A stretch of DNA of 64,000 nt from Bacteroidota bacterium (GTDB taxonomy: Bacteria; Bacteroidota; Bacteroidia; UBA4408): contig JAZKHE010000002.1 in assembly GCA_040385525.1 (NCBI GenBank), forward strand, positions 855,200 through 919,199, in the 5' to 3' direction. Within the stretch, counting starts at the first letter, position 1, and every line of letters begins with the position of its first letter. Positions 1-57,536 of the stretch are shown one piece after another. The position numbers and the translations under genes are program-made. Below the pieces are notes generated by a model. That model saw nothing but the letters and a program-made list of their open reading frames with translations. It searched no databases and was not told the DNA's origin.

Positions 1-2664
1 AGGAGGCGAAATTAAAAAACTACAATCAGTTAAACTATTATCTCCTGAAAAGTACAATGAACCATTTAAATCTATTGATTCAGTAGTTGCACCACACATA
101 TTAAAACCTTTAACTATAATATAATTGATTTTAGTTTGTGTATCTGTGCCAAAAGCATTGTTTGTAGTTAAGCTTACTGTGTATGTGCCAGGGTTATTGT
201 AGGTAATGTTTGTTGGGTTTTGAAGATTAGAATATGTGGTAACAGCACCAGGAAAACTCCATGTCCAGCTTGTTGGAGAATACATACTAAAATCCTGAAA
301 GTTTATACTTTCTCCAATATTAATAATAGTTTTATCTGTCGTAAAATCTGCAATTGGAACTTGAGTATTTTCAATAAAATAAACCATAAAATCTTCTACC
401 TGTCCTTTTTGTGGAGCATAACAAGCATCATTAATATTGTAAGTGTTTTCGTCTGAAATTACTCTCATTCGTAAACGTGTATTTAATGTAGCTGAAATAG
501 CTGTGTTTATTATATCTGTGTGAAGCAAAGTCGAATTATTGTCTTGAAAGATTAATTCATTAGTATTATTAAAACTTCCATCGTTGTTATAATCTATCCA
601 TACGTTAACTTTTTCGTTTATAGAAGTAGTAACAGACATTTGGTATGAACTACCAGCAATTAAAAGTGTAGAGTCTGCGCACGTAAAATCTGAGTAACCA
701 TAACTTGCATCGTCTGATGTATAATCAATAGTATTTAGTTTTACATTAGTAATTCCTTTTCCGCAACAATACGCAACCGTTTGTGGGCTGCATGACGGAC
801 TAATTGTACCTGGGAAATTATTTACGACTAAATAATTATTTTTTATTTCGGTATCTGATGTATTTCCAGGACAGTTAACTGTGCCAGTTGAAACTAATGT
901 TACAGTATAAGTTCCTGTATTTAAATACGTGTGCGTTGGATTTGTTAAATTGGAAGTGTTTCCGTCGCCAAAATCCCATAGATAATTTGAAGCATTTCCT
1001 GAAAGATTTACAAAATTAATTGTTGATGGAGTTGAACAAGTAATTTTAGGATTAGCTTTAAAATTTGCATAAACGCTATTGTTTGAAAAATTACCAACAC
1101 CAACTGCATACCACGCATTTTGCGTTTGAATGTATTGATTTGAGCAATTTCCAAATAAATCAAGGGCAGATTGTTCTGCATAATTTCTTGCGTCTTCAAA
1201 ATTAGAACTTGGTGTTAAATACACTGTTAAATTTCTGTATGCAATTTCTATAGCTTCGTCCATTCCTATTGCAGAAACATTAAAATTATTTTCAATATCG
1301 TTTGTTCCATTACCACCATTAACTAGTAAATAAAACCAATAGTTTTGTATTCCGCTATCGTAATGCACAATGTCGCCATTGTTAAAATATAAACCTCCGT
1401 AAGTATCTGCGCAATCATACAAATTCGGATTATTCATACTTCTAAATGGTGCGCCATTTCCAGAAGTAATTGCAAGGCCATATCCAACTAACCAAGTTGC
1501 AGTACTCGGGTTGTTGTGAAAATTAATCGCTGCACCAAAAACATCGCTAAACGATTCATTTAAAGCGCCCGATTCTCCAGAATAAATTAGTCCTGCAGAA
1601 AATTCAGTAACACTATGCGTATATTCGTGACCAACAATATCTAAAGATGTAAGCGGATTATAATTTGTAAAGTCGCCAGCTCCATAAACAATCATACTTC
1701 CATCCCAATATGCATTTACATATGCACTCTGCATAACACTTGATGTAACTGGCATACCAAATCCATCTTGACCGATTCTATTAAATTTATTTTCGAAATA
1801 ATCAAAAGTTACTTCTGCTCCCCAATGTGCATCTAATGCGTAATTATAGATGTCATCAGTAAAATTCCAAGTAGTAGAGTTATTTGTAATTTCATTAAAG
1901 TTTTCATCATAAGTAAAAATTCCACCACCTCTTCCGCTCTCTTGTAATCTGTAATTATTAGTTGAAACTAAATCAGTTGTAATTGTTCTTACGCCACTGT
2001 ATTTTGTGTGTGCTGTAGCTGTAACATCAGTGTTGTGAATTCTTTTTTCTACACCAACAATTTTCCCGGTTTTTGCATCAACATAATAGTTGTTGCGCGC
2101 CAAAGGTTCTTCAGAATATAAATCAATTTTCCAAGCTAAGTGAAATGTTTTTATGCTATCTCTATAAACAACTAATTCTGGATTGTTTGTTTTTTTATTT
2201 GTGGCTAGTTTTTTTGAATTTAATTTTAGTAATGCGTTTTGTGTGGCTGTATTACTATTTATTTGTGGTGTTACATCAAGATTTATATTTGTGTATAATT
2301 CACCATTTATAGATTCTATTTTATTGTTTTTAGTATGCACATAATACACACCATTTTTAACCAATAAATTTTTATAATATTGTTTAAATCTATAGTGAAT
2401 AAAACCACTTTTATCAGTTTCTGTTTGGAATAATTTAAAACTAGTTTGTTCGTCAGTTTTTAAAATTTTAGTTAGCCAATCATTAGTAGTTGATTCATTG
2501 TAATCAATTTCATTTTTAAATGAAACATAGGCTATGCTGTTTCTATCTTTGTTTAAGATAACTTTTTTTGCATTTGGAATTAATTTACTTGCTTCTTCAT
2601 TTTCAAAAGTTTGTGCAAACAAACTGATGTTTAAGAAACAGAAAAGGAGAAGTAGTTTTTTCAT
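1..2664 (-). CDS. Secreted M4 (thermolysin-family) zinc metalloprotease with C-terminal PKD and GEVED-like domains; C-terminus lies beyond the window start (partial)
   Basis: My own reverse-complement translation starts at ATG (2664-2662) with a signal peptide MKKLLLLFCFLNISLFAQ. It stays open through position 1, so there is no in-window stop, which is why it is absent from the ORF track. HEXXH zinc site VVGHEYTHSVTEF plus the third-ligand motif GALNESFSDVFG typical of thermolysin. Downstream PKD signatures (WDFGDGNTS; a second PKD-like module) and a GEVED motif (KGQVEDFMVYF). Confidence 0.8.
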   Translation of the reverse strand, partial: MKKLLLLFCFLNISLFAQTFENEEASKLIPNAKKVILNKDRNSIAYVSFKNEIDYNESTTNDWLTKILKTDEQTSFKLFQTETDKSGFIHYRFKQYYKNLLVKNGVYYVHTKNNKIESINGELYTNINLDVTPQINSNTATQNALLKLNSKKLATNKKTNNPELVVYRDSIKTFHLAWKIDLYSEEPLARNNYYVDAKTGKIVGVEKRIHNTDVTATAHTKYSGVRTITTDLVSTNNYRLQESGRGGGIFTYDENFNEITNNSTTWNFTDDIYNYALDAHWGAEVTFDYFENKFNRIGQDGFGMPVTSSVMQSAYVNAYWDGSMIVYGAGDFTNYNPLTSLDIVGHEYTHSVTEFSAGLIYSGESGALNESFSDVFGAAINFHNNPSTATWLVGYGLAITSGNGAPFRSMNNPNLYDCADTYGGLYFNNGDIVHYDSGIQNYWFYLLVNGGNGTNDIENNFNVSAIGMDEAIEIAYRNLTVYLTPSSNFEDARNYAEQSALDLFGNCSNQYIQTQNAWYAVGVGNFSNNSVYANFKANPKITCSTPSTINFVNLSGNASNYLWDFGDGNTSNLTNPTHTYLNTGTYTVTLVSTGTVNCPGNTSDTEIKNNYLVVNNFPGTISPSCSPQTVAYCCGKGITNVKLNTIDYTSDDASYGYSDFTCADSTLLIAGSSYQMSVTTSINEKVNVWIDYNNDGSFNNTNELIFQDNNSTLLHTDIINTAISATLNTRLRMRVISDENTYNINDACYAPQKGQVEDFMVYFIENTQVPIADFTTDKTIINIGESINFQDFSMYSPTSWTWSFPGAVTTYSNLQNPTNITYNNPGTYTVSLTTNNAFGTDTQTKINYIIVKGFNMCGATTESIDLNGSLYFSGDNSLTDCSFLISPP

Positions 2665-2737
2665 TGGCTAAAAAATTAATTCTATATAAAGTTAATAAAA
2701 TTAATTTCTTCTGCAAATAATTTAATTTAATCGAAAT

Positions 2738-4537
2738 TTAACTCTCCTTATTCCTTTTTCCAGCTTGTTGATACAAGTTAAAAATATCTCTGTAACGCAA
2801 ATAACCAATAATTACTCCTTCGTCTTCAATAGCTACTTTATCTACATCAAACATTACAATTACCTTCATTGCGCTACTTACTGGTAAATGAAAATTAATG
2901 CTTGGCACTTCTTTGTTAATGTGATTTTCTATTCCGCAGTTTTCAGTAATTGTTTCAATCACTTCGGGTTTAATTGTTCGTAAGCTTAGCATACCAACGT
3001 ATTGATTGTTTTCGTCAACCACAACAAAATCGCTTGAGTGCAAATTGGCTGCCAATTGTTGCAACTCTTTAAACTTTATATTTTTTGTAATGGTTGCAAA
3101 ATTTCTTGGTGTTTTAAATTGTTCCGAAATATTTACAGCATCTAATAAATCTACTTGCATATCCCAAGTGTGTGCCGGACTTTTAAAACGATTTTCAACC
3201 TGACTTTTATATAACGAAATACGTTTAGCCAAAATAAAAGTAAAAATAGAAACCAAAATTAGTTGAGGTAATAAAACGTAACTTCCTGTCATTTCGCAAA
3301 TCATAACAATGCCCGCTATAGGTGCGCTTGCAACGCCTGCATAAAATGCGCCCATACCAACCACAATGTACGATGCAACTCTAATATCGTATTGTGGCAA
3401 CATTTGTTGAGCAAAAGTTCCTACGGCTGCACCAAGCATTCCGCCAACAAATAACGATGGGCCAAAAATCCCCGCAGAACCTCCAGAACCAATGGTTAAT
3501 GTTGTTGAAACTATTTTTAAAAAAGCAATTAAAAGTAAACTACAAACTATCCAAAACTGACTATGGTAATTGCTAAAATAGTTTACCTCTTTTCCCATAA
3601 TTATATCTTCTAAAAAGTTTGCGCCAGTACCCGAAACTTCAAAAAAGAATAGAGATAATAAGCCAACTAATAGTCCGCCTATTGCAGGTTTAATAATGGG
3701 ATGAATTTTTATGGAAGCAATAAAAGAGCGTGCATCCTTAAAACCTTTCATAAATAAAAAACCAAAAACAAAACAAAGTATTCCTAAAATAATATAAAAC
3801 CAAAGTTCAGGAACGTGTAATGTACTTAGTTCGCTTATTTTCATAAAGCTATCAGTACCAGTATAAAAAGTATAAATTAAGTATGCAGTAACCGACGATA
3901 AAAAAGCGGGAATTAAAGCATCACTTTCTAAATCTTCTTTATACACCATTTCAACAGCAGTAAGTGCGCCGCCTAGTGGAGCTTTAAATATGGCTCCTAA
4001 TCCAGCAGCAGTACCCGATAATAATAATGTTCTTCTAGCACGCGAACCTGCTTTTACAAAATTGGCAACTATAACACCTATGCCTGCTCCAACCTGAGAA
4101 ATTGGTCCTTCTTTACCACCACTACCTCCAGTGGATAAAGTAAATATGGTAGCAACCGATTTAAAAAATGGAACTTTAGCACTAATTTTCCCTTCATTAT
4201 TGTGAAAAGCATTTATCATTTCATCAGTTCCCGTTCCTACTGAGTCTCTCGAAAAAAAGTAGGCTATAATTCCTGCAACTAGTCCACCAACAGCGGGTAA
4301 CACTATTATTGTGATTGAATTTATAGGATTTGATAGGGCATTGCCCAATTTATCGTTTAAACTTAAATTATTTTCGTTGCTTGATGCGTAAAGCGTTTTA
4401 ACAAAATCTTCGGCTAAATGTAGCAAGTAACTAAAACCCATAGCAGCAATACCCGCAGCAACACCAACAATTACAGCGTATAAATATAAAGAAGAAAGGT
4501 TGTTTAAATGGAATTTACCTATTGTTATTTTTTTCAT
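2738..4537 (-). CDS. ClC family voltage-gated chloride channel/H+-Cl- antiporter with C-terminal CBS pair
   Basis: 599 aa multi-TM protein. ClC selectivity motifs GSGGKEGP and GIFGPSLFVGG. Two CBS-like modules at the C-terminus. Confidence 0.85.
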   Translation of the reverse strand: MKKITIGKFHLNNLSSLYLYAVIVGVAAGIAAMGFSYLLHLAEDFVKTLYASSNENNLSLNDKLGNALSNPINSITIIVLPAVGGLVAGIIAYFFSRDSVGTGTDEMINAFHNNEGKISAKVPFFKSVATIFTLSTGGSGGKEGPISQVGAGIGVIVANFVKAGSRARRTLLLSGTAAGLGAIFKAPLGGALTAVEMVYKEDLESDALIPAFLSSVTAYLIYTFYTGTDSFMKISELSTLHVPELWFYIILGILCFVFGFLFMKGFKDARSFIASIKIHPIIKPAIGGLLVGLLSLFFFEVSGTGANFLEDIIMGKEVNYFSNYHSQFWIVCSLLLIAFLKIVSTTLTIGSGGSAGIFGPSLFVGGMLGAAVGTFAQQMLPQYDIRVASYIVVGMGAFYAGVASAPIAGIVMICEMTGSYVLLPQLILVSIFTFILAKRISLYKSQVENRFKSPAHTWDMQVDLLDAVNISEQFKTPRNFATITKNIKFKELQQLAANLHSSDFVVVDENNQYVGMLSLRTIKPEVIETITENCGIENHINKEVPSINFHLPVSSAMKVIVMFDVDKVAIEDEGVIIGYLRYRDIFNLYQQAGKRNKES

Positions 4538-14839: not shown

Positions 14840-14912
14840 GCCGAAGTAGCTCAGCTGGTAGAGCCACTGATTTGTAATCAGTAGGTCGGGGGTTCGAGTC
14901 CCTTCTTCGGCT
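14840..14912 (+). tRNA. tRNA-Thr (anticodon UGU)
   Basis: Cloverleaf GCCGAAG/CTTCGGC acceptor. Anticodon stem ACTGA/TCAGT with loop TTTGTAA. T-loop GGTTCGAGTCC. Confidence 0.9.
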
Positions 14913-14963
14913 CTTTTTTTTGTTCGTTCTTTAAAAGAAATGTTTTTGAAGAGTGTACAAGGA

Positions 14964-15043
14964 GGGGAGATACCAGAGTGGCCAAATGGGACGGACTGTA
15001 AATCCGTTGCGAAAGCTTCGAAGGTTCGAATCCTTCTCTCCCC
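14964..15043 (+). tRNA. tRNA-Tyr (anticodon GUA), class II with long variable arm
   Basis: Acceptor GGGGAGA/TCTCCCC. Anticodon loop CTGTAAA. Long variable arm GCGAAAGCTTCGAAG. T-loop GGTTCGAATCC. Followed by a hairpin plus T-run (15061-15089). Confidence 0.9.
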
Positions 15044-15091
15044 ACATTAAACGAAAAACAAATTGATCTAAAAATCAATTTGTTTTTTTAA

Positions 15092-15164
15092 GCGGAAGTA
15101 GCTCATTTGGTAGAGCATCAGCCTTCCAAGCTGAGGGTGGCCGGTTCGAGCCCGGTCTTCCGCT
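15092..15164 (+). tRNA. tRNA-Gly (anticodon UCC)
   Basis: Acceptor GCGGAAG/CTTCCGC. Anticodon stem TCAGC/GCTGA with loop CTTCCAA. T-loop GGTTCGAGCCC. Confidence 0.9.
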
Positions 15165-15222
15165 CTAGAGTTTGAAAGTAACTTTTTTTATTTTCTAAAG
15201 AAGATAAAAGCGTTACTCTAAA

Positions 15223-15294
<72 letters not shown>

Positions 15295-15360
15295 CAAATT
15301 GTTGCGGTATTAAAAAGAATTCAATTAAATAAACATAAACACTAAAATAAAACAACAATC

Positions 15361-16548
15361 ATGGCAAAAGAAAACTTCGACCGTTCCAAGCCGCACGTTA
15401 ACATTGGAACTATTGGTCACGTGGATCACGGTAAAACTACATTAACTGCAGCTATCACTTCTGTATTAGCAGATTTAGGATTAGCAGCTGTTCGTGATTT
15501 CTCTTCAATCGACAACGCTCCTGAAGAAAAAGAACGTGGTATTACTATTAACACTTCTCACGTTGAGTACGAAACTAAAAACCGTCACTACGCTCACGTT
15601 GACTGTCCAGGTCACGCGGATTACGTAAAAAACATGGTTACTGGTGCTGCTCAAATGGATGGTGCAATATTAGTAGTTGCTGCAACAGATGGTCCAATGC
15701 CACAAACTCGTGAGCATATCCTTTTGGCTCGCCAAGTTGGTGTTCCAGAAATCGTTGTGTTTATGAATAAAGTAGATATGGTTGATGACGTAGAGTTATT
15801 AGACCTTGTTGAAATGGAAATTCGTGAATTATTATCTTTCTATAAATTTAATGGAGATGCAACTCCAATCATCCGTGGTTCTGCTTTAGGTGGTTTAAAT
15901 AAAGATGCTAACTGGGTTCCAAAAATTATGGAATTAATGGATGCTGTAGATTCTTACATTCCATTACCTCCACGTGATGTTGATAAGCCTTTCTTAATGC
16001 CAGTTGAAGACGTATTTACAATTACTGGTCGTGGTACTGTTGCTACAGGACGTATCGAATCAGGTGTAATTAAAGTTGGAGAAGAGGTTGAGATTATGGG
16101 TATGCAAGAGGAAAAATTAAAATCAGTTTGTACTGGTGTTGAGATGTTCCGTAAATTGCTAGATAGAGGTGAAGCTGGTGATAACGCAGGTTTATTATTA
16201 CGTGGTATCGATAAAAAAGATATTCGTCGTGGTATGGTTATCGCTAAACCAGGTTCAATTACTCCACACACTGAGTTTAAAGCTGAGGTGTATATCTTGA
16301 AAAAAGAAGAAGGTGGACGTCATACTCCATTCCATAACAAATACCGTCCTCAATTCTACTTGCGTACAACTGACGTAACAGGAGAAATTGATTTAGGTGA
16401 AGGTCGCGAAATGGTTATGCCAGGTGATAACGTTACTATTACAGTAAAATTAATTTGCCCGGTAGCTATGGACAAAGGCTTACGTTTCGCTATCCGTGAG
16501 GGTGGTAGAACAGTAGGTGCTGGTCAAGTAACTGAAGTTATAAAATAA
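15361..16548 (+). CDS. tuf: Elongation factor Tu
   Basis: 395 aa. [18 protein letters not shown] and NKVD GTPase motifs. Confidence 0.98.
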
Positions 16549-16573
16549 TTATATCCATTAAGGATTTAGACAA

Positions 16574-16607
16574 GGTGTTCCGATTTATCGGAACGCCTTT
16601 CTTTACC
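16574..16607 (+). terminator. Terminator after tuf
   Basis: GTTCCGAT-TT-ATCGGAAC hairpin followed by a T-rich tract. Confidence 0.55.
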
Positions 16608-16629
16608 TTGTGGAATTTGTGTTTTAAAT

Positions 16630-16704
16630 ACAGGTGTAGTTCAAGGGTAGAATGTCGGTCTCCAAAACCGCTGATGGGAGTTCGAATCTCTCCACCTGTG
16701 CCAA
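16630..16704 (+). tRNA. tRNA-Trp (anticodon CCA), CCA end encoded
   Basis: Acceptor ACAGGTG/CACCTGT. Anticodon loop CTCCAAA. T-arm GGGAG-TTCGAAT-CTCTC. Aligns arm-by-arm with E. coli tRNA-Trp. Sits in the conserved position between tuf and secE. Confidence 0.9.
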
Positions 16705-52019: not shown

Positions 52020-52493
52020 ATGAAAAATTTAGTTTTTATTATCTCTTTATTGTCGCTTTTTATTTCGTCTTGTAAAAAAGAAGAAGTAAAACAAGATCCT
52101 TATGCTTGGATAGACAATTATACTGGTAATTTTAAGTTTTCTATTTCTGAAGAATCATTTCAACCAGGAGATCCATTCGGAGGTTTTTTTCAAAGTACTA
52201 CATCTACTAAAAATTATGAGGCAGAAGGCACAATATCTCGAATTAATGAAAAAAACTTAATTAAAATTCAAATTGGTGGATTTATGATTGATAGTTTAAT
52301 TATTGACGAAAATAAAAATTTTTCATATACATTCAATGACGGCGGACAGTGTGGTGGTAATACAGAAGAAATTACGGGTATGTACGTTATTAACAGAGAT
52401 AGTGTTTCTTTTTCATATATTTCTTATTATTATAGGTGCGATGGAATGAGAAATCACTTTAAGAAAAACGCTGTAGGAACTAGACTTCCTTGA
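52020..52493 (+). CDS. Hypothetical lipoprotein
   Basis: 157 aa. Lipoprotein signal (ISSC). No recognisable domain. Confidence 0.4.
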   Translation: MKNLVFIISLLSLFISSCKKEEVKQDPYAWIDNYTGNFKFSISEESFQPGDPFGGFFQSTTSTKNYEAEGTISRINEKNLIKIQIGGFMIDSLIIDENKNFSYTFNDGGQCGGNTEEITGMYVINRDSVSFSYISYYYRCDGMRNHFKKNAVGTRLP

Positions 52494-52592
52494 TTTGCAA
52501 TACGTATTAAATTAGACTCATTCTAACCTTTCTGGCGCAAGCGTCCGCTTGAGCTGTAATTAAAATACAAATATGTAATATTTTAAACAGAT

Positions 52593-52673
52593 AATCGGAA
52601 TTAATACGATTTTCTATTGTTTATTTTACAATTAATTGTTAAAATAGTTGCAATTAATCGGAAAAAATCCGAT
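52593..52673 (+). promoter_or_regulatory. Candidate AbiEi operator: two related palindromes upstream of abiEi
   Basis: Perfect inverted repeat ATCGGA-AAAAA-TCCGAT at 52657-52673. A related imperfect site ATCGGAATTAATACGAT at about 52593-52611. Both lie within 100 bp of the 52696 start. Confidence 0.5.
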
Positions 52674-52695
52674 TATTGCATAATAATTTTGCATT

Positions 52696-53334
52696 GTGGA
52701 ATTTAGAAGACTAATAAAAGAATACGCCGAAATACCTGTTTCTCACAGTTTGTTGATGGATGCGCTTGTTGAGTACAATCGCCCCAACGATAAAATAAGT
52801 GAGTTGCTAAAAAGTGGCGCACTAATTTCTGTAAAAAGAGGTTTGTATCTTTTTGGTACAGATTTAGATTTGGCTGTTCCCGAGCCATTTTTAATTGCTA
52901 ATCATTTGCGTGGGCCAAGTTATGTTTCGTTGGAGTCTGCTTTGTCTTATTGGGGTTTAATACCAGAGCGTGTGCACGAAATTACTTCTGCAACGCTAAA
53001 AACTTCAAAAAAATATAATGCAGAAGCAGGTCGATTTAGTTTTTATCATTTGCCTTCGCCGTATTATTCTTTTGGAATACAAAGTGTGCAACTTACTCCA
53101 AAACAAACCGTGCTTATGGCTTCGCGCGAAAAAGCAGTTTGCGACAAAGTAATTTTAACCTCGGGTGTTTTGTTAAGAAGCGTTAGTCAAACAAAAGATT
53201 TTTTGCTAAACGATATGCGTATGGACGAAGAAATTTTACAAAGTTTAAATACTACAACTATCGCTTCGTGGATTGATGACGCACCAAAAAGTAATAGTAT
53301 TGCAATGCTTATTAAAACATTAAATACGCTATGA
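52696..53334 (+). CDS. abiEi: Type IV toxin-antitoxin/abortive-infection AbiEi-family antitoxin (transcriptional regulator)
   Basis: 212 aa. AbiEi_4-like N-terminal winged helix (LLKSGALISVKRGLYLF). Directly upstream of an AbiEii gene, overlapping it by 4 bp. Confidence 0.75.
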   Translation: MEFRRLIKEYAEIPVSHSLLMDALVEYNRPNDKISELLKSGALISVKRGLYLFGTDLDLAVPEPFLIANHLRGPSYVSLESALSYWGLIPERVHEITSATLKTSKKYNAEAGRFSFYHLPSPYYSFGIQSVQLTPKQTVLMASREKAVCDKVILTSGVLLRSVSQTKDFLLNDMRMDEEILQSLNTTTIASWIDDAPKSNSIAMLIKTLNTL

Positions 53335-54182
53335 TTAAAGAATGGATAGCAACATACAATCCGAAAAACGAAGACGAAACGTTGTCGGCTTTGCGCGAAA
53401 TTATGCAAGAAATAGCCCTTTCGGGATTATCGCGAACCGATTTTTTTGAAAGGGCTGCTTTTTATGGTGGCACTGCACTTCGCATTTTTTATGGATTAGA
53501 TAGATTTTCGGAAGACTTGGATTTCTCTTTGCTGGAGCCCGATGCAAACTTTTCGTTAGAGCCTTATTTTTCTGCCATTGTTACAGAATTTGAAGCTATT
53601 GGAATGACGGTAAGCATAAACGAAAAAGATAAAAAAATACAAACGAATGTTGAATCGGCTTTTTTAAAATCGGAAACCATTTGGAAAGAATTGATTTTAG
53701 AAGACATAGTAAAACAAGCAGGAATAAAATCGAACAAAGAAATAAAAATTAAAATAGAAGTTGACAGGCAGCCACCACTTGGTTTTGAAACCGAAGAAAA
53801 ATTGTTGTTGCGTCCGTTTTCGTTTTATGTAAAATGTTTTACGTTGCCGAGTTTGTTTGCAGGAAAAATGCACGCACTTTTATTTCGTAAATGGAAAAAT
53901 CGCGTAAAAGGAAGAGATTGGTACGATTTAGAATGGTATATAAAAAACGGAGTAGCATTAGATGTAAGTCATTTTTTGCAACGCGCTAAAGATACAGGAG
54001 ATTGGAAAGCGAAAACTATTTCTCAAAAACAAATACTAGAAATACTAAACCAAAAAATTAATACAGTTTCATTCGATAATGTTAAGGAAGATGTTGTTCG
54101 ATTTATAAAAGACGATAAAGCACTTAAAATTTGGACTCCAACTTACTTTAATGATTTATCGAAGAAATTAAAGTTTAAGTAA
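53331..54182 (+). CDS. abiEii: AbiEii/AbiGii-family nucleotidyltransferase toxin
   Basis: 283 aa. DUF1814/AbiEii signature YGGTALRIFYGLDRFSEDLDFSL (nucleotidyltransferase fold). Confidence 0.8.
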   Translation: MIKEWIATYNPKNEDETLSALREIMQEIALSGLSRTDFFERAAFYGGTALRIFYGLDRFSEDLDFSLLEPDANFSLEPYFSAIVTEFEAIGMTVSINEKDKKIQTNVESAFLKSETIWKELILEDIVKQAGIKSNKEIKIKIEVDRQPPLGFETEEKLLLRPFSFYVKCFTLPSLFAGKMHALLFRKWKNRVKGRDWYDLEWYIKNGVALDVSHFLQRAKDTGDWKAKTISQKQILEILNQKINTVSFDNVKEDVVRFIKDDKALKIWTPTYFNDLSKKLKFK

Positions 54183-54253
54183 AATATTTTAATTGTAATT
54201 GATTTTATCAAATAATTTACTTATCTTTGACGTAAGTATCGTTATGCGTTAGT

Positions 54254-54535
54254 ATGATAATTTCCTTTGGTAATAAAGAAACGGAAAAAGTTTGGGAGGG
54301 TGAAAGAATAAAAAGTCCTTCAACTGAGATTCAGGAAATAGCTCGACGAAAGCTAAGAATGTTGAATAACTCGCAGAATATTAACGATTTGATGATACCT
54401 CCTTCTAATGAATTAGAAAAATTAAAAGGAGATTTAAAAGATTATTATTCTATTCGTATAAATAATCAATGGCGGATTATTTTTAAATGGAATAACGGAA
54501 ATGCTGAAGAAGTAGAAATTATCGATTATCATTAA
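54254..54535 (+). CDS. higB: HigB-family (RelE/ParE superfamily) toxin
   Basis: 93 aa. FGNKETEKVW...YSIRINNQWRIIFKW...EVEIIDYH matches the HigB plasmid-maintenance killer pattern. Confidence 0.8.
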   Translation: MIISFGNKETEKVWEGERIKSPSTEIQEIARRKLRMLNNSQNINDLMIPPSNELEKLKGDLKDYYSIRINNQWRIIFKWNNGNAEEVEIIDYH

Positions 54536-54547
54536 AAGTTTAAAATA

Positions 54548-54847
54548 ATGAAAACACTAAAAAACATTCATCCAGGGGAAGTGCTTTTACAGGAGTTTTT
54601 ACTTCCGTTGGAAATAAGTGCTTATAGGTTAGCAAAAGATATTGCAATTCCTCAAACACGTATTTCTCTAATTATTAAAGGAGAACGAAGAGTAACAGCT
54701 GATACGGCTTTGCGACTTTCTAAATATTTTGGTAATAGCGCAAAATTTTGGTTAGGCTTGCAAGATGATTATGACATTGAAGATGAAATAGTGCAAAAGA
54801 AAAAAGAACTAAATGCAATAAAGCAATACAATAAATCAGCAGCATAA
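54548..54847 (+). CDS. higA: HigA-family XRE-HTH antitoxin
   Basis: 99 aa. IHPGEVLLQEFLLPLEISAYRLAKDIAIPQTRISLIIKGERRVTADTALRLSKYFGNSAKFWLGLQ is the HigA/VapI signature. Confidence 0.8.
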   Translation: MKTLKNIHPGEVLLQEFLLPLEISAYRLAKDIAIPQTRISLIIKGERRVTADTALRLSKYFGNSAKFWLGLQDDYDIEDEIVQKKKELNAIKQYNKSAA

Positions 54848-54852
54848 TATTT

Positions 54853-55272
54853 ATGCGTATTAAATTAGATTTCCCAGAAAAGGTAGTTTTTACAACAGAA
54901 ATTGCAGTAAGAATATCTGACGTAAATTATGGCGGACATTTAGGCAACGATGCTGTTTTATCGCTTGCACACGAAGCGCGTTTACAGTTTTTAAAATCGA
55001 TAAATTGTACCGAATTGAATTTATTTTGTGTTTCAATTATTATGGGTGATGCCGCTGTAGTATACAAAGCAGAGGCTTTTTATGGCGATGTGCTACAAAT
55101 ACAAATTGCAATTGCAGATGTTTCTGCGCGTAGTTTTGATATTTATTATTCACTAAAAAATAAAAAAACGCAACAACAAATTGCTATTGTTAAAACGGGG
55201 ATAGTTTGTTTTGATTACGAAACTCGTAAAACAACAAACGTACCAACTGAGTTTGTAAATTTGTTTGCGTGA
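54853..55272 (+). CDS. Hotdog-fold acyl-CoA thioesterase (YbgC/4HBT-like)
   Basis: 139 aa. YGGHLGNDAVLSLAHEAR motif. Confidence 0.7.
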   Translation: MRIKLDFPEKVVFTTEIAVRISDVNYGGHLGNDAVLSLAHEARLQFLKSINCTELNLFCVSIIMGDAAVVYKAEAFYGDVLQIQIAIADVSARSFDIYYSLKNKKTQQQIAIVKTGIVCFDYETRKTTNVPTEFVNLFA

Positions 55273-55307
55273 TTGATAAAGATGCTTCGTGCCTCAGCAT
55301 GACAATT

Positions 55308-55345
55308 AAAAAAAATCCCGAACAATTTGTTCGGGATTTTTTTGT
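55308..55345. terminator. Bidirectional terminator (thioesterase + / glnN -)
   Basis: AAAAAAAATCCCGAACA-ATT-TGTTCGGGATTTTTTTG. Perfect 10-bp stem flanked by A-run and T-run. Confidence 0.75.
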
Positions 55346-55346
55346 T

Positions 55347-57536
55347 TTATTTTACAAATAATAATTCTCTATATTTTGGTAATGGCCATTCTGCATTATC
55401 AACTAAAAGTTCTAGTTTATCTACTTCGTAGCGTATTTTTTCAAAATAAGGAATTACTTTTTCGCAATAGGCTACAGCTTGTTTTTTAGCATGTTCAATA
55501 GCGTTTGCTTTTTTGCGTTCTTCGGTCATTTCATCCACAAATTTAATAATCTTAGAAATACGTTCTGATACTTCGATGATCATATCCATTTGCGATTGTG
55601 CATGTTGTTTAAAATCTTTTTCACCAAAAATAGATTTTAATCCAGTTACGTTATTTATTAATTTATTTTGATAATTAATTGCAACAGGCACAATGTGATT
55701 TAAAGCTAAATCGCCCATTACACGAGATTCTATTTGAATTTTTTTAGTATAAATTTCTAAACTAATATCATGACGAGCTTCTGTTTCGCGCTCACTCATA
55801 ATATTATAATCTTTAAATAATTGTTTTGTTTTTTTAGAAGCTAAAGCATCTAACGCATCGGGCGTTGTTTTAATGTTAGACAAACCTCTTTTTTCTGCTT
55901 CTTTTACCCATTCGTCGCCGTAGCCGTTTCCTTCAAATCTTATTTTTTTAGATTCAATAATGTAAGTGCGTAATACTTGCAAAATAGCTTCGTCTTTTTT
56001 AACGTCTTTTTCAATTAAAGCATCTACTTCTTTTTTAAATTTATTTAATTGGTCAGCAATAATTAAATTTAATGCAATCATTGCTGAAGCGCAGTTAGCT
56101 GAAGAACCTACCGCTCTAAACTCAAATTTATTTCCTGTAAATGCAAAAGGCGATGTTCTATTTCTATCGGTATTATCCAATAATATTTCTGGAATTTTAC
56201 CAATGTTTAATTTTAAATCTGTTTTTTCGTCAGGAGTCATTTTTCCATCTTTCACTTTGCTTTCTAACTCATCTAACACAGAGCTTAATTGGCTCCCTAA
56301 AAATACCGACATAATTGCTGGAGGAGCTTCGTTTGCACCAAGGCGGTGATCGTTACCTGCACTTGCAATTGATGCACGTAAAAAATCGGCATGCTCATAA
56401 ACTGCACGAACTGTAGTAATAAAGAAAGTTAAAAACTGTAAATTGTTTTTTGGAGTTTTGCCTGGCGATAATAAATTTTTACCTGTGTTTGTGCTAAGCG
56501 CCCAGTTGTTGTGTTTGCCCGAACCATTTACTCCAGAAAAAGGTTTTTCGTGCATTAACACTTTAAAATGATGGCGTTGAGCAACTTTACTCATTAAATC
56601 CATCAACAATTGATTGTGATCGTTAGCTAAATTTACTTCTTCAAAAACGGGTGCGCACTCAAACTGATTTGGAGCCACTTCGTTATGACGTGTTTTTAAA
56701 GGAATACCTAACATTAAACTTTCTGCTTCAAAATCGCGCATAAAATTTAAAACTCTATCAGGAATAGAGCCAAAATAATGATCTTCTAATTGTTGACCTT
56801 TGGCAGGAGAGTGTCCAAACAAAGTTCTGCCTGTCATAGCTAAATCGGGGCGTGCATTGTGTAAAGATGTGTCGACCAAAAAATATTCTTGTTCGCAGCC
56901 TAAAGTAGCAATTACTTTAGTTACGTTCTTGTCAAAATATTGGCAAACATCAACAGCAGCTTTATCAACAGCGTGCAATGCTTTTAATAAAGGCGTTTTA
57001 TAATCTAAGGCTTCGCCTGTGTAAGATATAAATATGGTAGGAATACATAAAGTTGTGCCAATTACAAATGCAGGAGACGATGGATCCCAAGCTGTGTAGC
57101 CACGAGCTTCAAATGTATTGCGAATTCCTCCGTTTGGAAAGCTAGATGCATCTGGCTCTTGCTGAACCAAAGCCGAACCTTCAAAATTTTCGATAGCTAA
57201 ACCATCACCAATAGGTTCAAAAAAAGCATCGTGTTTTTCGGCAGTACTACCCGTTAAAGGTTGAAACCAATGTGTGTAGTGCGTTGCACCACGTCCGCTA
57301 GCCCAAGCTTTCATTGCAGAAGCAACTTGATTAGCTGTTTTTCTATCTATTTGTGTGCCATGATCTATTGCGCTTATAACACTTTCGTAAGCTTCTTTAC
57401 TTAAAAACTCGCGCATTGATATTTTGCCAAATACATTTTTGCCAAAAATTTCAGGACTTTTATAGTCTTTAATAATGGGTTCAACAGGATTTCTGTTGCT
57501 TGCTTCTTTTAGAGCGTTAAAACGAATAGAGAACAT
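55347..57536 (-). CDS. glnN: Glutamine synthetase type III
   Basis: 729 aa. GSIII length and conserved blocks typical of Bacteroidetes. Confidence 0.9.
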   Translation of the reverse strand: MFSIRFNALKEASNRNPVEPIIKDYKSPEIFGKNVFGKISMREFLSKEAYESVISAIDHGTQIDRKTANQVASAMKAWASGRGATHYTHWFQPLTGSTAEKHDAFFEPIGDGLAIENFEGSALVQQEPDASSFPNGGIRNTFEARGYTAWDPSSPAFVIGTTLCIPTIFISYTGEALDYKTPLLKALHAVDKAAVDVCQYFDKNVTKVIATLGCEQEYFLVDTSLHNARPDLAMTGRTLFGHSPAKGQQLEDHYFGSIPDRVLNFMRDFEAESLMLGIPLKTRHNEVAPNQFECAPVFEEVNLANDHNQLLMDLMSKVAQRHHFKVLMHEKPFSGVNGSGKHNNWALSTNTGKNLLSPGKTPKNNLQFLTFFITTVRAVYEHADFLRASIASAGNDHRLGANEAPPAIMSVFLGSQLSSVLDELESKVKDGKMTPDEKTDLKLNIGKIPEILLDNTDRNRTSPFAFTGNKFEFRAVGSSANCASAMIALNLIIADQLNKFKKEVDALIEKDVKKDEAILQVLRTYIIESKKIRFEGNGYGDEWVKEAEKRGLSNIKTTPDALDALASKKTKQLFKDYNIMSERETEARHDISLEIYTKKIQIESRVMGDLALNHIVPVAINYQNKLINNVTGLKSIFGEKDFKQHAQSQMDMIIEVSERISKIIKFVDEMTEERKKANAIEHAKKQAVAYCEKVIPYFEKIRYEVDKLELLVDNAEWPLPKYRELLFVK

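Follow-up and report, generated by a model that had tools for sequence, protein, structure and literature searches.

We examined a compact gene islet in a 64,000-nucleotide stretch of DNA from a Bacteroidota bacterium (contig JAZKHE010000002.1, positions 855,200 to 919,199), referred to here as the window (64 kb). The islet carries four genes, abiEi, abiEii, higB, and higA, that belong to the AbiE and HigBA families of toxin-antitoxin systems. The gene order in the window is a cystathionine gamma-synthase-family (CGS) gene, a lipoprotein-like gene, the AbiE cassette (cassette A), the HigBA cassette (cassette H), a thioesterase gene, and a glutamine synthetase gene; coordinates are collected in Table 1. 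All four open reading frames (ORFs) of the islet are intact and of full length, and abiEi and abiEii share a 4-bp ATGA overlap of stop and start codons at 53331-53334. An earlier description of this DNA, made from the sequence alone (the original prediction), had given the same ORF lengths (212, 283, 93, and 99 amino acids), positions, overlap, and flanking lipoprotein and thioesterase genes, all of which we confirm. The gaps are 71 nt between abiEii and higB and 12 nt between higB and higA rather than 70 and 13 bp. Taken together, the data presented below make it very probable that the islet consists of two self-contained toxin-antitoxin cassettes standing side by side just upstream of the thioesterase gene. 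These are ordinary AbiE and HigBA cassettes of well-known families and not a new kind of system, and the original identification was right.

Family assignments rest on profile searches, conserved motifs, and predicted structure. AbiEii matches Pfam PF08843 with 115.1 bits against a cut-off of 22.5 (E = 6.5e-33) and the PADLOC AbiEii model across its full length (E = 6.7e-122). It contains the residues G46-G47, S60-E61-D62-L63-D64, and R195-D196...D199, which are at least 97% conserved among 74 homologues; the motif definitions, hG[GS]-x(9-15)-DhD and motif IV, were taken from PMC3985639, and the corresponding S. agalactiae residues were matched by spacing and not by alignment. In the PDB, AbiEii showed only weak, local similarity to JHP933 of H. 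pylori. AbiEi matches the PADLOC AbiEi model (E = 5.3e-74), and its AlphaFold2 model (predicted local distance difference test score, 83.7) found four matches when compared with the PDB by Foldseek at E ≤ 0.001, all of which are S. agalactiae AbiEi (6y8q; E = 2.7e-6) or M. tuberculosis Rv2827c (1zel; template modeling [TM] score, 0.66 to 0.68). The protein belongs to a large and tightly conserved family of 212-amino-acid Bacteroidota proteins (1,891 matches, the best 120 of which are 63 to 80% identical). Most homologues start with ATG, versus GTG in the window. In 80 genome loci fetched because they encode AbiEi relatives, abiEii is always the next gene after abiEi (80/80), and the two overlap by ATGA in 69 of 73 loci.

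The second pair is assigned by the same means. HigB matches PF05015 (81.6 bits against a cut-off of 27; E = 6e-23), shares its C-terminal DYH with Proteus HigB, and has as its best PDB relative the "putative killer protein" 6f8s_B (E = 5.1e-18), followed by Proteus HigB (4mct_B; E = 2.5e-6). 6F8S is probably Pseudomonas putida GraTA. HigA matches the equivalog model TIGR02607 (102.3 bits against a cut-off of 47.7; E = 9.6e-30), and its PDB matches, which include solved structures of HigA proteins, are 3trb, 7csv, 6f8s_A (an XRE family regulator), and 4mcx_A. Among 80 metagenomic loci encoding close HigB relatives (68 to 88% identity), higA adjoins higB in 76.

The region upstream of abiEi is occupied by two large palindromic modules. 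The core of the proximal module is a perfect palindrome with 8-nt arms, TAATCGGA-N5-TCCGATTA; the palindrome ATCGGA-N5-TCCGAT of the original prediction is therefore real, with arms longer than had been described. The imperfect second copy, which had been placed about 60 bp earlier, is also present: the distal core, AATCGGA-N5-TACGATT (52593-52611), lies 63 bp upstream of the proximal one and has one mismatch. With up to one mismatch allowed, the core occurs twice in the 64 kb, compared with 0.00 times in shuffled sequences. When homologous sites were anchored on the core, an extended 57-bp module emerged, TGTnA-N13-TAATCGGA-N5-TCCGATTA-N13-TnACA, and the only two matches to this form in the window (expected, 0.00) are the modules listed in Table 1. 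The modules are separated by 6 bp, giving a 63-bp period and four arms, and a repeat finder independently recovered 26-nt arms with a 5-nt gap in the related locus L083. The junction between the modules (52624-52643) is itself palindromic, TTTTACAATTAATTGTTAAA, and consists of the outer ACA of the first module and the outer TGT of the second with 6 bp between them.

Both the sequence and the position of this array are conserved. We searched for AATCGGA-N5-TCCGATT, with up to three mismatches, in the 250 bp upstream of abiEi in 81 loci, and found it in 79, with two copies in 63. The distance between the two copies is 63 bp in 44 of these 63 loci, and 58 of the 79 have the center of the proximal core at -31 relative to the start codon; outside this region of the loci, the background is 0.074 sites per kb. 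The outer bases are conserved as well: position -27 is G in 76/78 proximal and 53/57 distal sites, and position +27 is C in 74/78 and 48/57, respectively. This comparison had been set in advance as a test of the original proposal that the palindromes are an AbiEi operator, and the recurrence of the motif upstream of the homologues favors that proposal: the inverted repeats in the abiE promoter could serve negative autoregulation.

The -7 box of Bacteroidota promoters has the consensus TAnnTTTG. Among the abiEi loci, 29 of 78 have this box (up to one mismatch allowed) within the proximal module's left arm, which is its commonest position, so that bound AbiEi would occlude the promoter. In the window, both candidate boxes (TAAAATAG and TAATTTTG) lie within the array. 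A sigma-70 promoter scan gave no excess over shuffled sequence (19 versus 16.6), with a model that is unsuited to Bacteroidota, and TAnnTTTG was used in its place. We propose that AbiEi represses its own operon by binding the 120-bp array, probably with one monomer on each of the four bipartite arms; the array spans both candidate -7 boxes as well as the region where transcription is predicted to start, and it abuts the start codon.

TABLE 1 Features of the AbiE-HigBA islet and its surroundings (window coordinates)
Feature	Position	Strand	Description
abiEi	52696-53334	+	212 aa, GTG start; AbiE antitoxin; PADLOC AbiEi; start position conserved in family
abiEii	53331-54182	+	283 aa; DUF1814 nucleotidyltransferase toxin; Pfam PF08843, PADLOC
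higB	54254-54535	+	93 aa; RelE-fold mRNA interferase toxin; C-terminal motif DYH; PF05015
higA	54548-54847	+	99 aa; HTH-XRE (helix-turn-helix) antitoxin; TIGR02607
Distal abiE operator module	52574-52630	.	57-bp extended palindrome; core 52592-52612
Proximal abiE operator module	52637-52693	.	57-bp extended palindrome; core 52655-52675; ends 2 nt before GTG
Candidate -7 box TAAAATAG	52640-52647		Commonest family position; 2 mismatches to TAnnTTTG
Candidate -7 box TAATTTTG	52683-52690		Exact match; ends 5 nt before abiEi GTG
higBA promoter/operator	54199-54239	+	-33-like TTG 54199-54201; -7 box TATCTTTG 54222-54229
Left 17-nt direct repeat	52500-52516	+	ATACGTATTAAATTAGA; copy of thioesterase ORF start, ATG to ATA
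Right 17-nt direct repeat	54853-54869	+	ATGCGTATTAAATTAGA; first 17 nt of thioesterase ORF
4HBT_2 thioesterase gene	54853-55272	+	Starts 5 nt past higA; not a toxin-antitoxin component
Repeat-like element GTCAyGCTGArGnAyGAAGC	55284-55303	-	Just past thioesterase; also at L083 1478-1497 and L090 643-662 and 1532-1551
Terminator hairpin	55309-55343	.	Strong, bidirectional; common to thioesterase and convergent glutamine synthetase gene
Lipoprotein-like ORF	52020-52493		Left flank of islet
GC-rich imperfect palindrome	52532-52554	.	Short; in spacer between left repeat and abiE operator; partly shared with L083; single copy in window

Two characterized systems allow the layout to be compared. The S. 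agalactiae promoter, PabiE, is repressed by AbiEi monomers that bind a pair of inverted-repeat arms of 23 bp each (Dy et al. 2014, PMC3985639); these arms, TGTTGCTTTTA...N...TAAAAGCAACA, are 3 bp apart (PMC3985639; PMC7319586). Like the pair described here, the S. agalactiae system is bicistronic with a 4-nt overlap, has a DUF1814 toxin with hG[GS]...DhD and an antitoxin composed of a winged helix and a C-terminal domain (6Y8Q is the best match of our predicted fold), and has long inverted-repeat arms in its promoter whose outermost bases are TGT...ACA. It differs in that the antitoxins are only about 16% identical over the structural alignment, and its operator is a single pair of 23-bp arms with a 3-bp gap, whereas the window has two pairs, with four arms of about 26 bp and a 5-bp gap. 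Conservation is strongest in the outer 11 bp in S. agalactiae and in the inner core, TAATCGGA, here, where the promoter is of the Bacteroidota type. For M. tuberculosis Rv2827c, the bound region from -1 to -131 contains four arms of 23 bp (Beck et al. 2020, PMC7319586), with gaps of 13 bp within pairs and 4 bp between pairs (PMC7319586). By our arithmetic from that report, its operator has a period of 23 + 13 + 23 + 4 = 63 bp, equal to the 57 + 6 = 63 bp found here. The Rv2827c-Rv2826c (MenA4/MenT4) operator thus shares with ours four arms in two tandem pairs, overlap with the promoter, an end abutting the start codon, and the 63-bp period, and Rv2827c (1ZEL) gives the highest TM score to the AbiEi model; it is unlike AbiEi in being about 14% identical and larger (about 295 amino acids, with a bigger C-terminal domain) and in its within-pair gap (13 versus 5 bp). 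The four arms, the 63-bp period, and the array abutting the start codon place the layout nearer the mycobacterial than the streptococcal one. The founding abortive-infection example, AbiE of Lactococcus lactis pNP40, is of the same two-gene family, but it is plasmid-borne, with demonstrated defense against 936-type phages.

The HigBA cassette has regulatory sequences of its own. An inverted repeat, TTACTTA-N9-TAAGTAT (54217-54239), spans the higBA -7 box (TATCTTTG), and the regions upstream of the higB homologues share the consensus TTACTTA-yCTTTGrCG-TAAGTAA, a 7-N9-7 repeat that encloses TAyyTTTG; a -33 element, TTTG/TTG, precedes it by about 20 nt. The strict pattern was found in 55 of 82 loci and TAyyTTTG in 61 of 82. 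By analogy with other HigA repressors, the element at 54217-54239 is likely the HigA operator, and the HTH antitoxin HigA would be expected to bind TTACTTA-N9-TAAGTAt over the -7 box. Characterized members of the HigBA family (6F8S; Proteus vulgaris Rts1 4MCT/4MCX; Coxiella VapI 3TRB) likewise have the toxin gene first, a RelE-fold HigB with DYH, an HTH-XRE HigA of TIGR02607, and an inverted repeat overlapping the promoter. The cassette described here differs from them in belonging to a Bacteroidota-specific subfamily of 93- and 99-amino-acid proteins that are 68 to 88% identical across metagenomes, and in having its operator, TTACTTA-N9-TAAGTAA, around a TAnnTTTG -7 box and not around sigma-70 -10/-35 elements.

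For the proteins themselves, function can be proposed from their relatives. A 2026 preprint reports that S. agalactiae AbiEii adds pyrimidines to tRNAs and that its antitoxin, AbiEi, binds it and causes it to auto-phosphorylate at T65, the phospho-acceptor two residues ahead of D67; it also argues that AbiE should be reclassified as a type VII rather than a type IV system (bioRxiv 10.64898/2026.01.19.700257). By analogy with this toxin and with M. tuberculosis MenT, AbiEii would halt translation by extending the 3' ends of tRNAs with added nucleotides. AbiEi, with its winged helix and C-terminal domain, would neutralize AbiEii, under the newest model by inducing the toxin to phosphorylate itself. 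Here S60 is a candidate phospho-acceptor, as its spacing to D62 equals that of T65 to D67 in S. agalactiae. HigB is expected to act as a ribosome-dependent mRNA endonuclease.

Several points weigh against this account of the islet. DNA binding, repression, toxicity, the mechanism of neutralization, and a contribution to phage defense or locus stabilization are what we infer from the genes and their comparison. S. agalactiae AbiE expressed in E. coli gave no protection from 32 coliphages (bioRxiv 10.64898/2026.01.19.700257), and a defense role is therefore not to be assumed for its relative here. AbiEi has no Pfam match at E ≤ 0.01; AbiEi_4 (PF13338), its sole hit at E ≤ 10, scores 11.9 bits against a cut-off of 25, and NCBIfam NF047376 scores 39.6 bits against a cut-off of 150. 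Weak sub-threshold matches to AbiEi_4 occur in 35 of 47 family members (best E = 0.0062), and PDB sequence and profile searches with AbiEi returned no relative and nothing meaningful. The family assignments of the original prediction hence stand in hidden Markov model searches for AbiEii, HigB, and HigA and, through PADLOC, for AbiEi, whereas AbiEi_4 misses its threshold; a match by fold and by PADLOC combined with misses by the Pfam and NCBIfam models indicates that AbiEi comes from a divergent clade. On the DNA side, the right half of the distal core carries its C-to-A mismatch at a highly conserved position, and the window has only a weak -7 box, with two mismatches, where the family most often carries it. 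If TAATTTTG, 5 nt from the GTG, were used instead, the abiE mRNA would be leaderless with a GUG start, which leaves the transcription start uncertain. The operator counts describe a single clade and not AbiE generally, since the loci were fetched by peptide patterns that included the recognition-helix motif RPNDKISE.

The last such point concerns the distal module, whose arms are complementary beyond the core, with several pair types per position (loci L003 to L082). Position 12 of this module is complementary in 29 of 56 sequences, compared with 16 expected from a shuffle control that ignores phylogeny; arm covariation is much less in the proximal module, and the median arm length is 10 nt in distal versus 8 nt in proximal modules. 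Simple protein binding does not account for this suggestive result, which possibly reflects a secondary role as a hairpin or insulator or homogenization between arms. It also speaks for reading the palindromes as mainly structural or recombination elements (terminators, insulators against read-through, or cassette-end sites) and not as AbiEi operators. Such a reading could further draw on the lack of a terminator-like site after the upstream lipoprotein gene and on the fact that homology with relatives starts right at the distal module's outer boundary (52570-52572). Against this, the core is nearly invariant in sequence, and not merely complementary, among loci whose proteins are 56 to 80% identical, and it keeps a fixed distance to the start codon; the outer TGT/ACA bases are conserved symmetrically in both modules; the layout agrees with the experimentally proven AbiEi and Rv2827c operators; and the AT-rich stems have little stability, with only -7.8 kcal/mol for folding of the distal 45-mer in the window. 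We therefore consider a chiefly structural role unlikely and favor the reading of the modules as AbiEi operators.

The relatives of the islet show that AbiE and HigBA are independent cassettes. Neither higB, higA, the thioesterase gene, nor the other window neighbors are found near abiEi in any of the 80 abiEi-family loci, and no abiEi, abiEii, or thioesterase gene is found near higB in any of the 80 higB-family loci. The closest HigBA homologues (87 to 88% identity) are stand-alone pairs between unrelated housekeeping genes, and nucleotide homology delimits cassette A to about 52562-54204 and cassette H to about 54195-54830. The two are combined in only three close lineages, namely, the window, L083/L084, and L090/L091. 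L083/L084 is 82% identical to the window in nucleotide sequence over 52572-55347, with cassette A, cassette H, the thioesterase gene, and the terminator in that order, between entirely different flanking genes. L090/L091 retains the CGS flank (98% amino acid identity) and has the cassettes in the swapped order, H and then A; it is without the lipoprotein and thioesterase genes, has a 15-nt remnant of the thioesterase start after higA, and has part of the abiE operator region duplicated upstream of higB. Within L090, where higBA precedes abiE (886-3235), a 132-nt direct repeat stands before both cassettes (619-784 and 1508-1712) and comprises the repeat-like element of Table 1 and a portion of the abiE operator. 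In front of higB, the copy lacks the distal core and ends inside the proximal core.

These comparisons bear on whether AbiE and HigBA, perhaps with the thioesterase, form one functionally coupled multigene defense system. The conservation of the block from operator to terminator in L083/L084 in another genomic context would fit such a system, as would the lack of a terminator between the cassettes and the gap of only 3 to 5 nt from higA to the thioesterase gene. The absence of co-occurrence in both sets of 80 loci led us to reject a conserved AbiE-HigBA(-thioesterase) system, however, and the stand-alone HigBA homologues, the swapped order in L090 with no thioesterase gene, and the separate promoter and operator of each cassette make any coupled system highly improbable. 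That the cassettes, though intact, are inert passengers in the chromosome that have lost toxicity or regulation and play no part in defense or stabilization is also very unlikely: the lack of nearby recombinase or phage genes, a base composition like that of the flanks, and the failure of S. agalactiae AbiE to defend E. coli would suit it, but the full-length ORFs, the conserved catalytic and neutralization motifs, and the intact operators speak against it, and proteins that are 80 to 89% identical to those of relatives, with DNA about 82% identical, fit purifying selection.

Two independent cassettes therefore remain our reading of the islet, and its ends offer hints of how they came together. 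The 2,353-bp islet lies between 17-nt direct repeats that agree at 16 of 17 positions; the right copy (ATGCGTATTAAATTAGA) is the start of the thioesterase ORF, and the left copy (ATACGTATTAAATTAGA) differs in its start codon. The 14-nt exact core of the repeat (right copy, 54856-54869) occurs only at these two sites in the window, with 0.11 occurrences expected. The junction of thioesterase fragment, spacer, and cassette A is common to the window and L090, which suggests that a unit of spacer, A, H, and thioesterase start was duplicated in tandem or passed through a circular form. The repeat-like element, which flanks the cassettes in L083 and L090, was considered as a candidate multicopy mobile element; it is present once in the 64-kb window. 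Two relatives of the thioesterase gene are found without the cassettes: in L089 the protein is 94% identical (91% in nucleotide sequence), the glutamine synthetase junction is retained, and homology begins at window position 54851; L088 is the second. The L088 homologue is split into two frames (416-712 and 721-834, within 416-834), either as a frameshift pseudogene or through an assembly error. L089 was considered as a clean empty site; its upstream gene differs from that of the window, and a precise excision or insertion is thus not demonstrable there. Among relatives, which are represented by short contigs, the site after the CGS gene varies only in these two cassettes and the lipoprotein gene. 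Together with the swapped order in a relative, the 17-nt repeat around the islet may be a trace of recombinase-free toxin-antitoxin cassettes having moved through a duplicated or circular intermediate.

Thus, the original suggestion of an insertion is broadly supported by the direct repeat and by a cassette-free relative. The thioesterase gene is not a neutral flank: the higA-thioesterase gap of 3 to 5 nt is the most conserved junction in the relatives. Downstream of abiE, no terminator-like site precedes the hairpin listed in Table 1, with none found between the cassettes, and none was found after the upstream lipoprotein gene; because the hairpin follows the thioesterase gene, that gene is probably cotranscribed with higBA. 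The further suggestion that the site marks a phage defense hotspot found no support beyond the variability of these cassettes after the CGS gene in the short contigs of relatives. Housekeeping genes surround the islet for 8 kb in either direction, among them those for guanylate kinase, CGS, type III glutamine synthetase, and the ribosomal proteins S6, S18, and L9, and the AbiE-HigBA pairing recurs in 0 of 160 homologous loci. No recombinase or phage genes and no tRNA genes as integration targets were found near the islet (recombinase and phage genes, 8 kb on either side), and its base composition matches that of the flanks, with no anomaly suggestive of foreign origin.

AbiE and HigBA are common chromosomal modules, and the adjacency of the two is biologically routine and not surprising. 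What the analysis adds is a precise operator model, supported by comparison among loci, for a large AbiEi clade of Bacteroidota that lies outside the Pfam and NCBIfam models, with an operator phasing equal to that of M. tuberculosis Rv2827c. The related lineages, with the cassettes in the same order, swapped, or absent, further illustrate how small recombinase-free toxin-antitoxin cassettes are reshuffled. As a tentative proposal, which we regard as possible but doubtful, a 120-bp four-arm operator made of two 57-bp bipartite palindromes at a 63-bp period (six helical turns) and abutting the start codon would be common to a large Bacteroidota AbiEi clade, and the recombinase-free cassettes may have moved through a duplicated or circular intermediate. 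If the operator is shared in this way, a phased four-monomer complex would represent the ancestral regulation of COG5340 antitoxins, and the two-arm operator of S. agalactiae would be a reduced form.

Some further features of the region were noted. A search of the islet and its relatives against Rfam returned nothing near any gathering score, and the matches reflect the terminator hairpin alone. The lipoprotein-like ORF encodes a signal peptide and a cysteine at FISSC and has a weak match to Riean_0653, with no family above threshold; it is missing from the otherwise syntenic L090 and so belongs to the variable stretch after the CGS gene. Unrelated to the islet, five tRNA genes (Thr-TGT, Tyr, Gly-TCC, Thr-GGT, and Trp) are clustered at 14840-16703 of the window.

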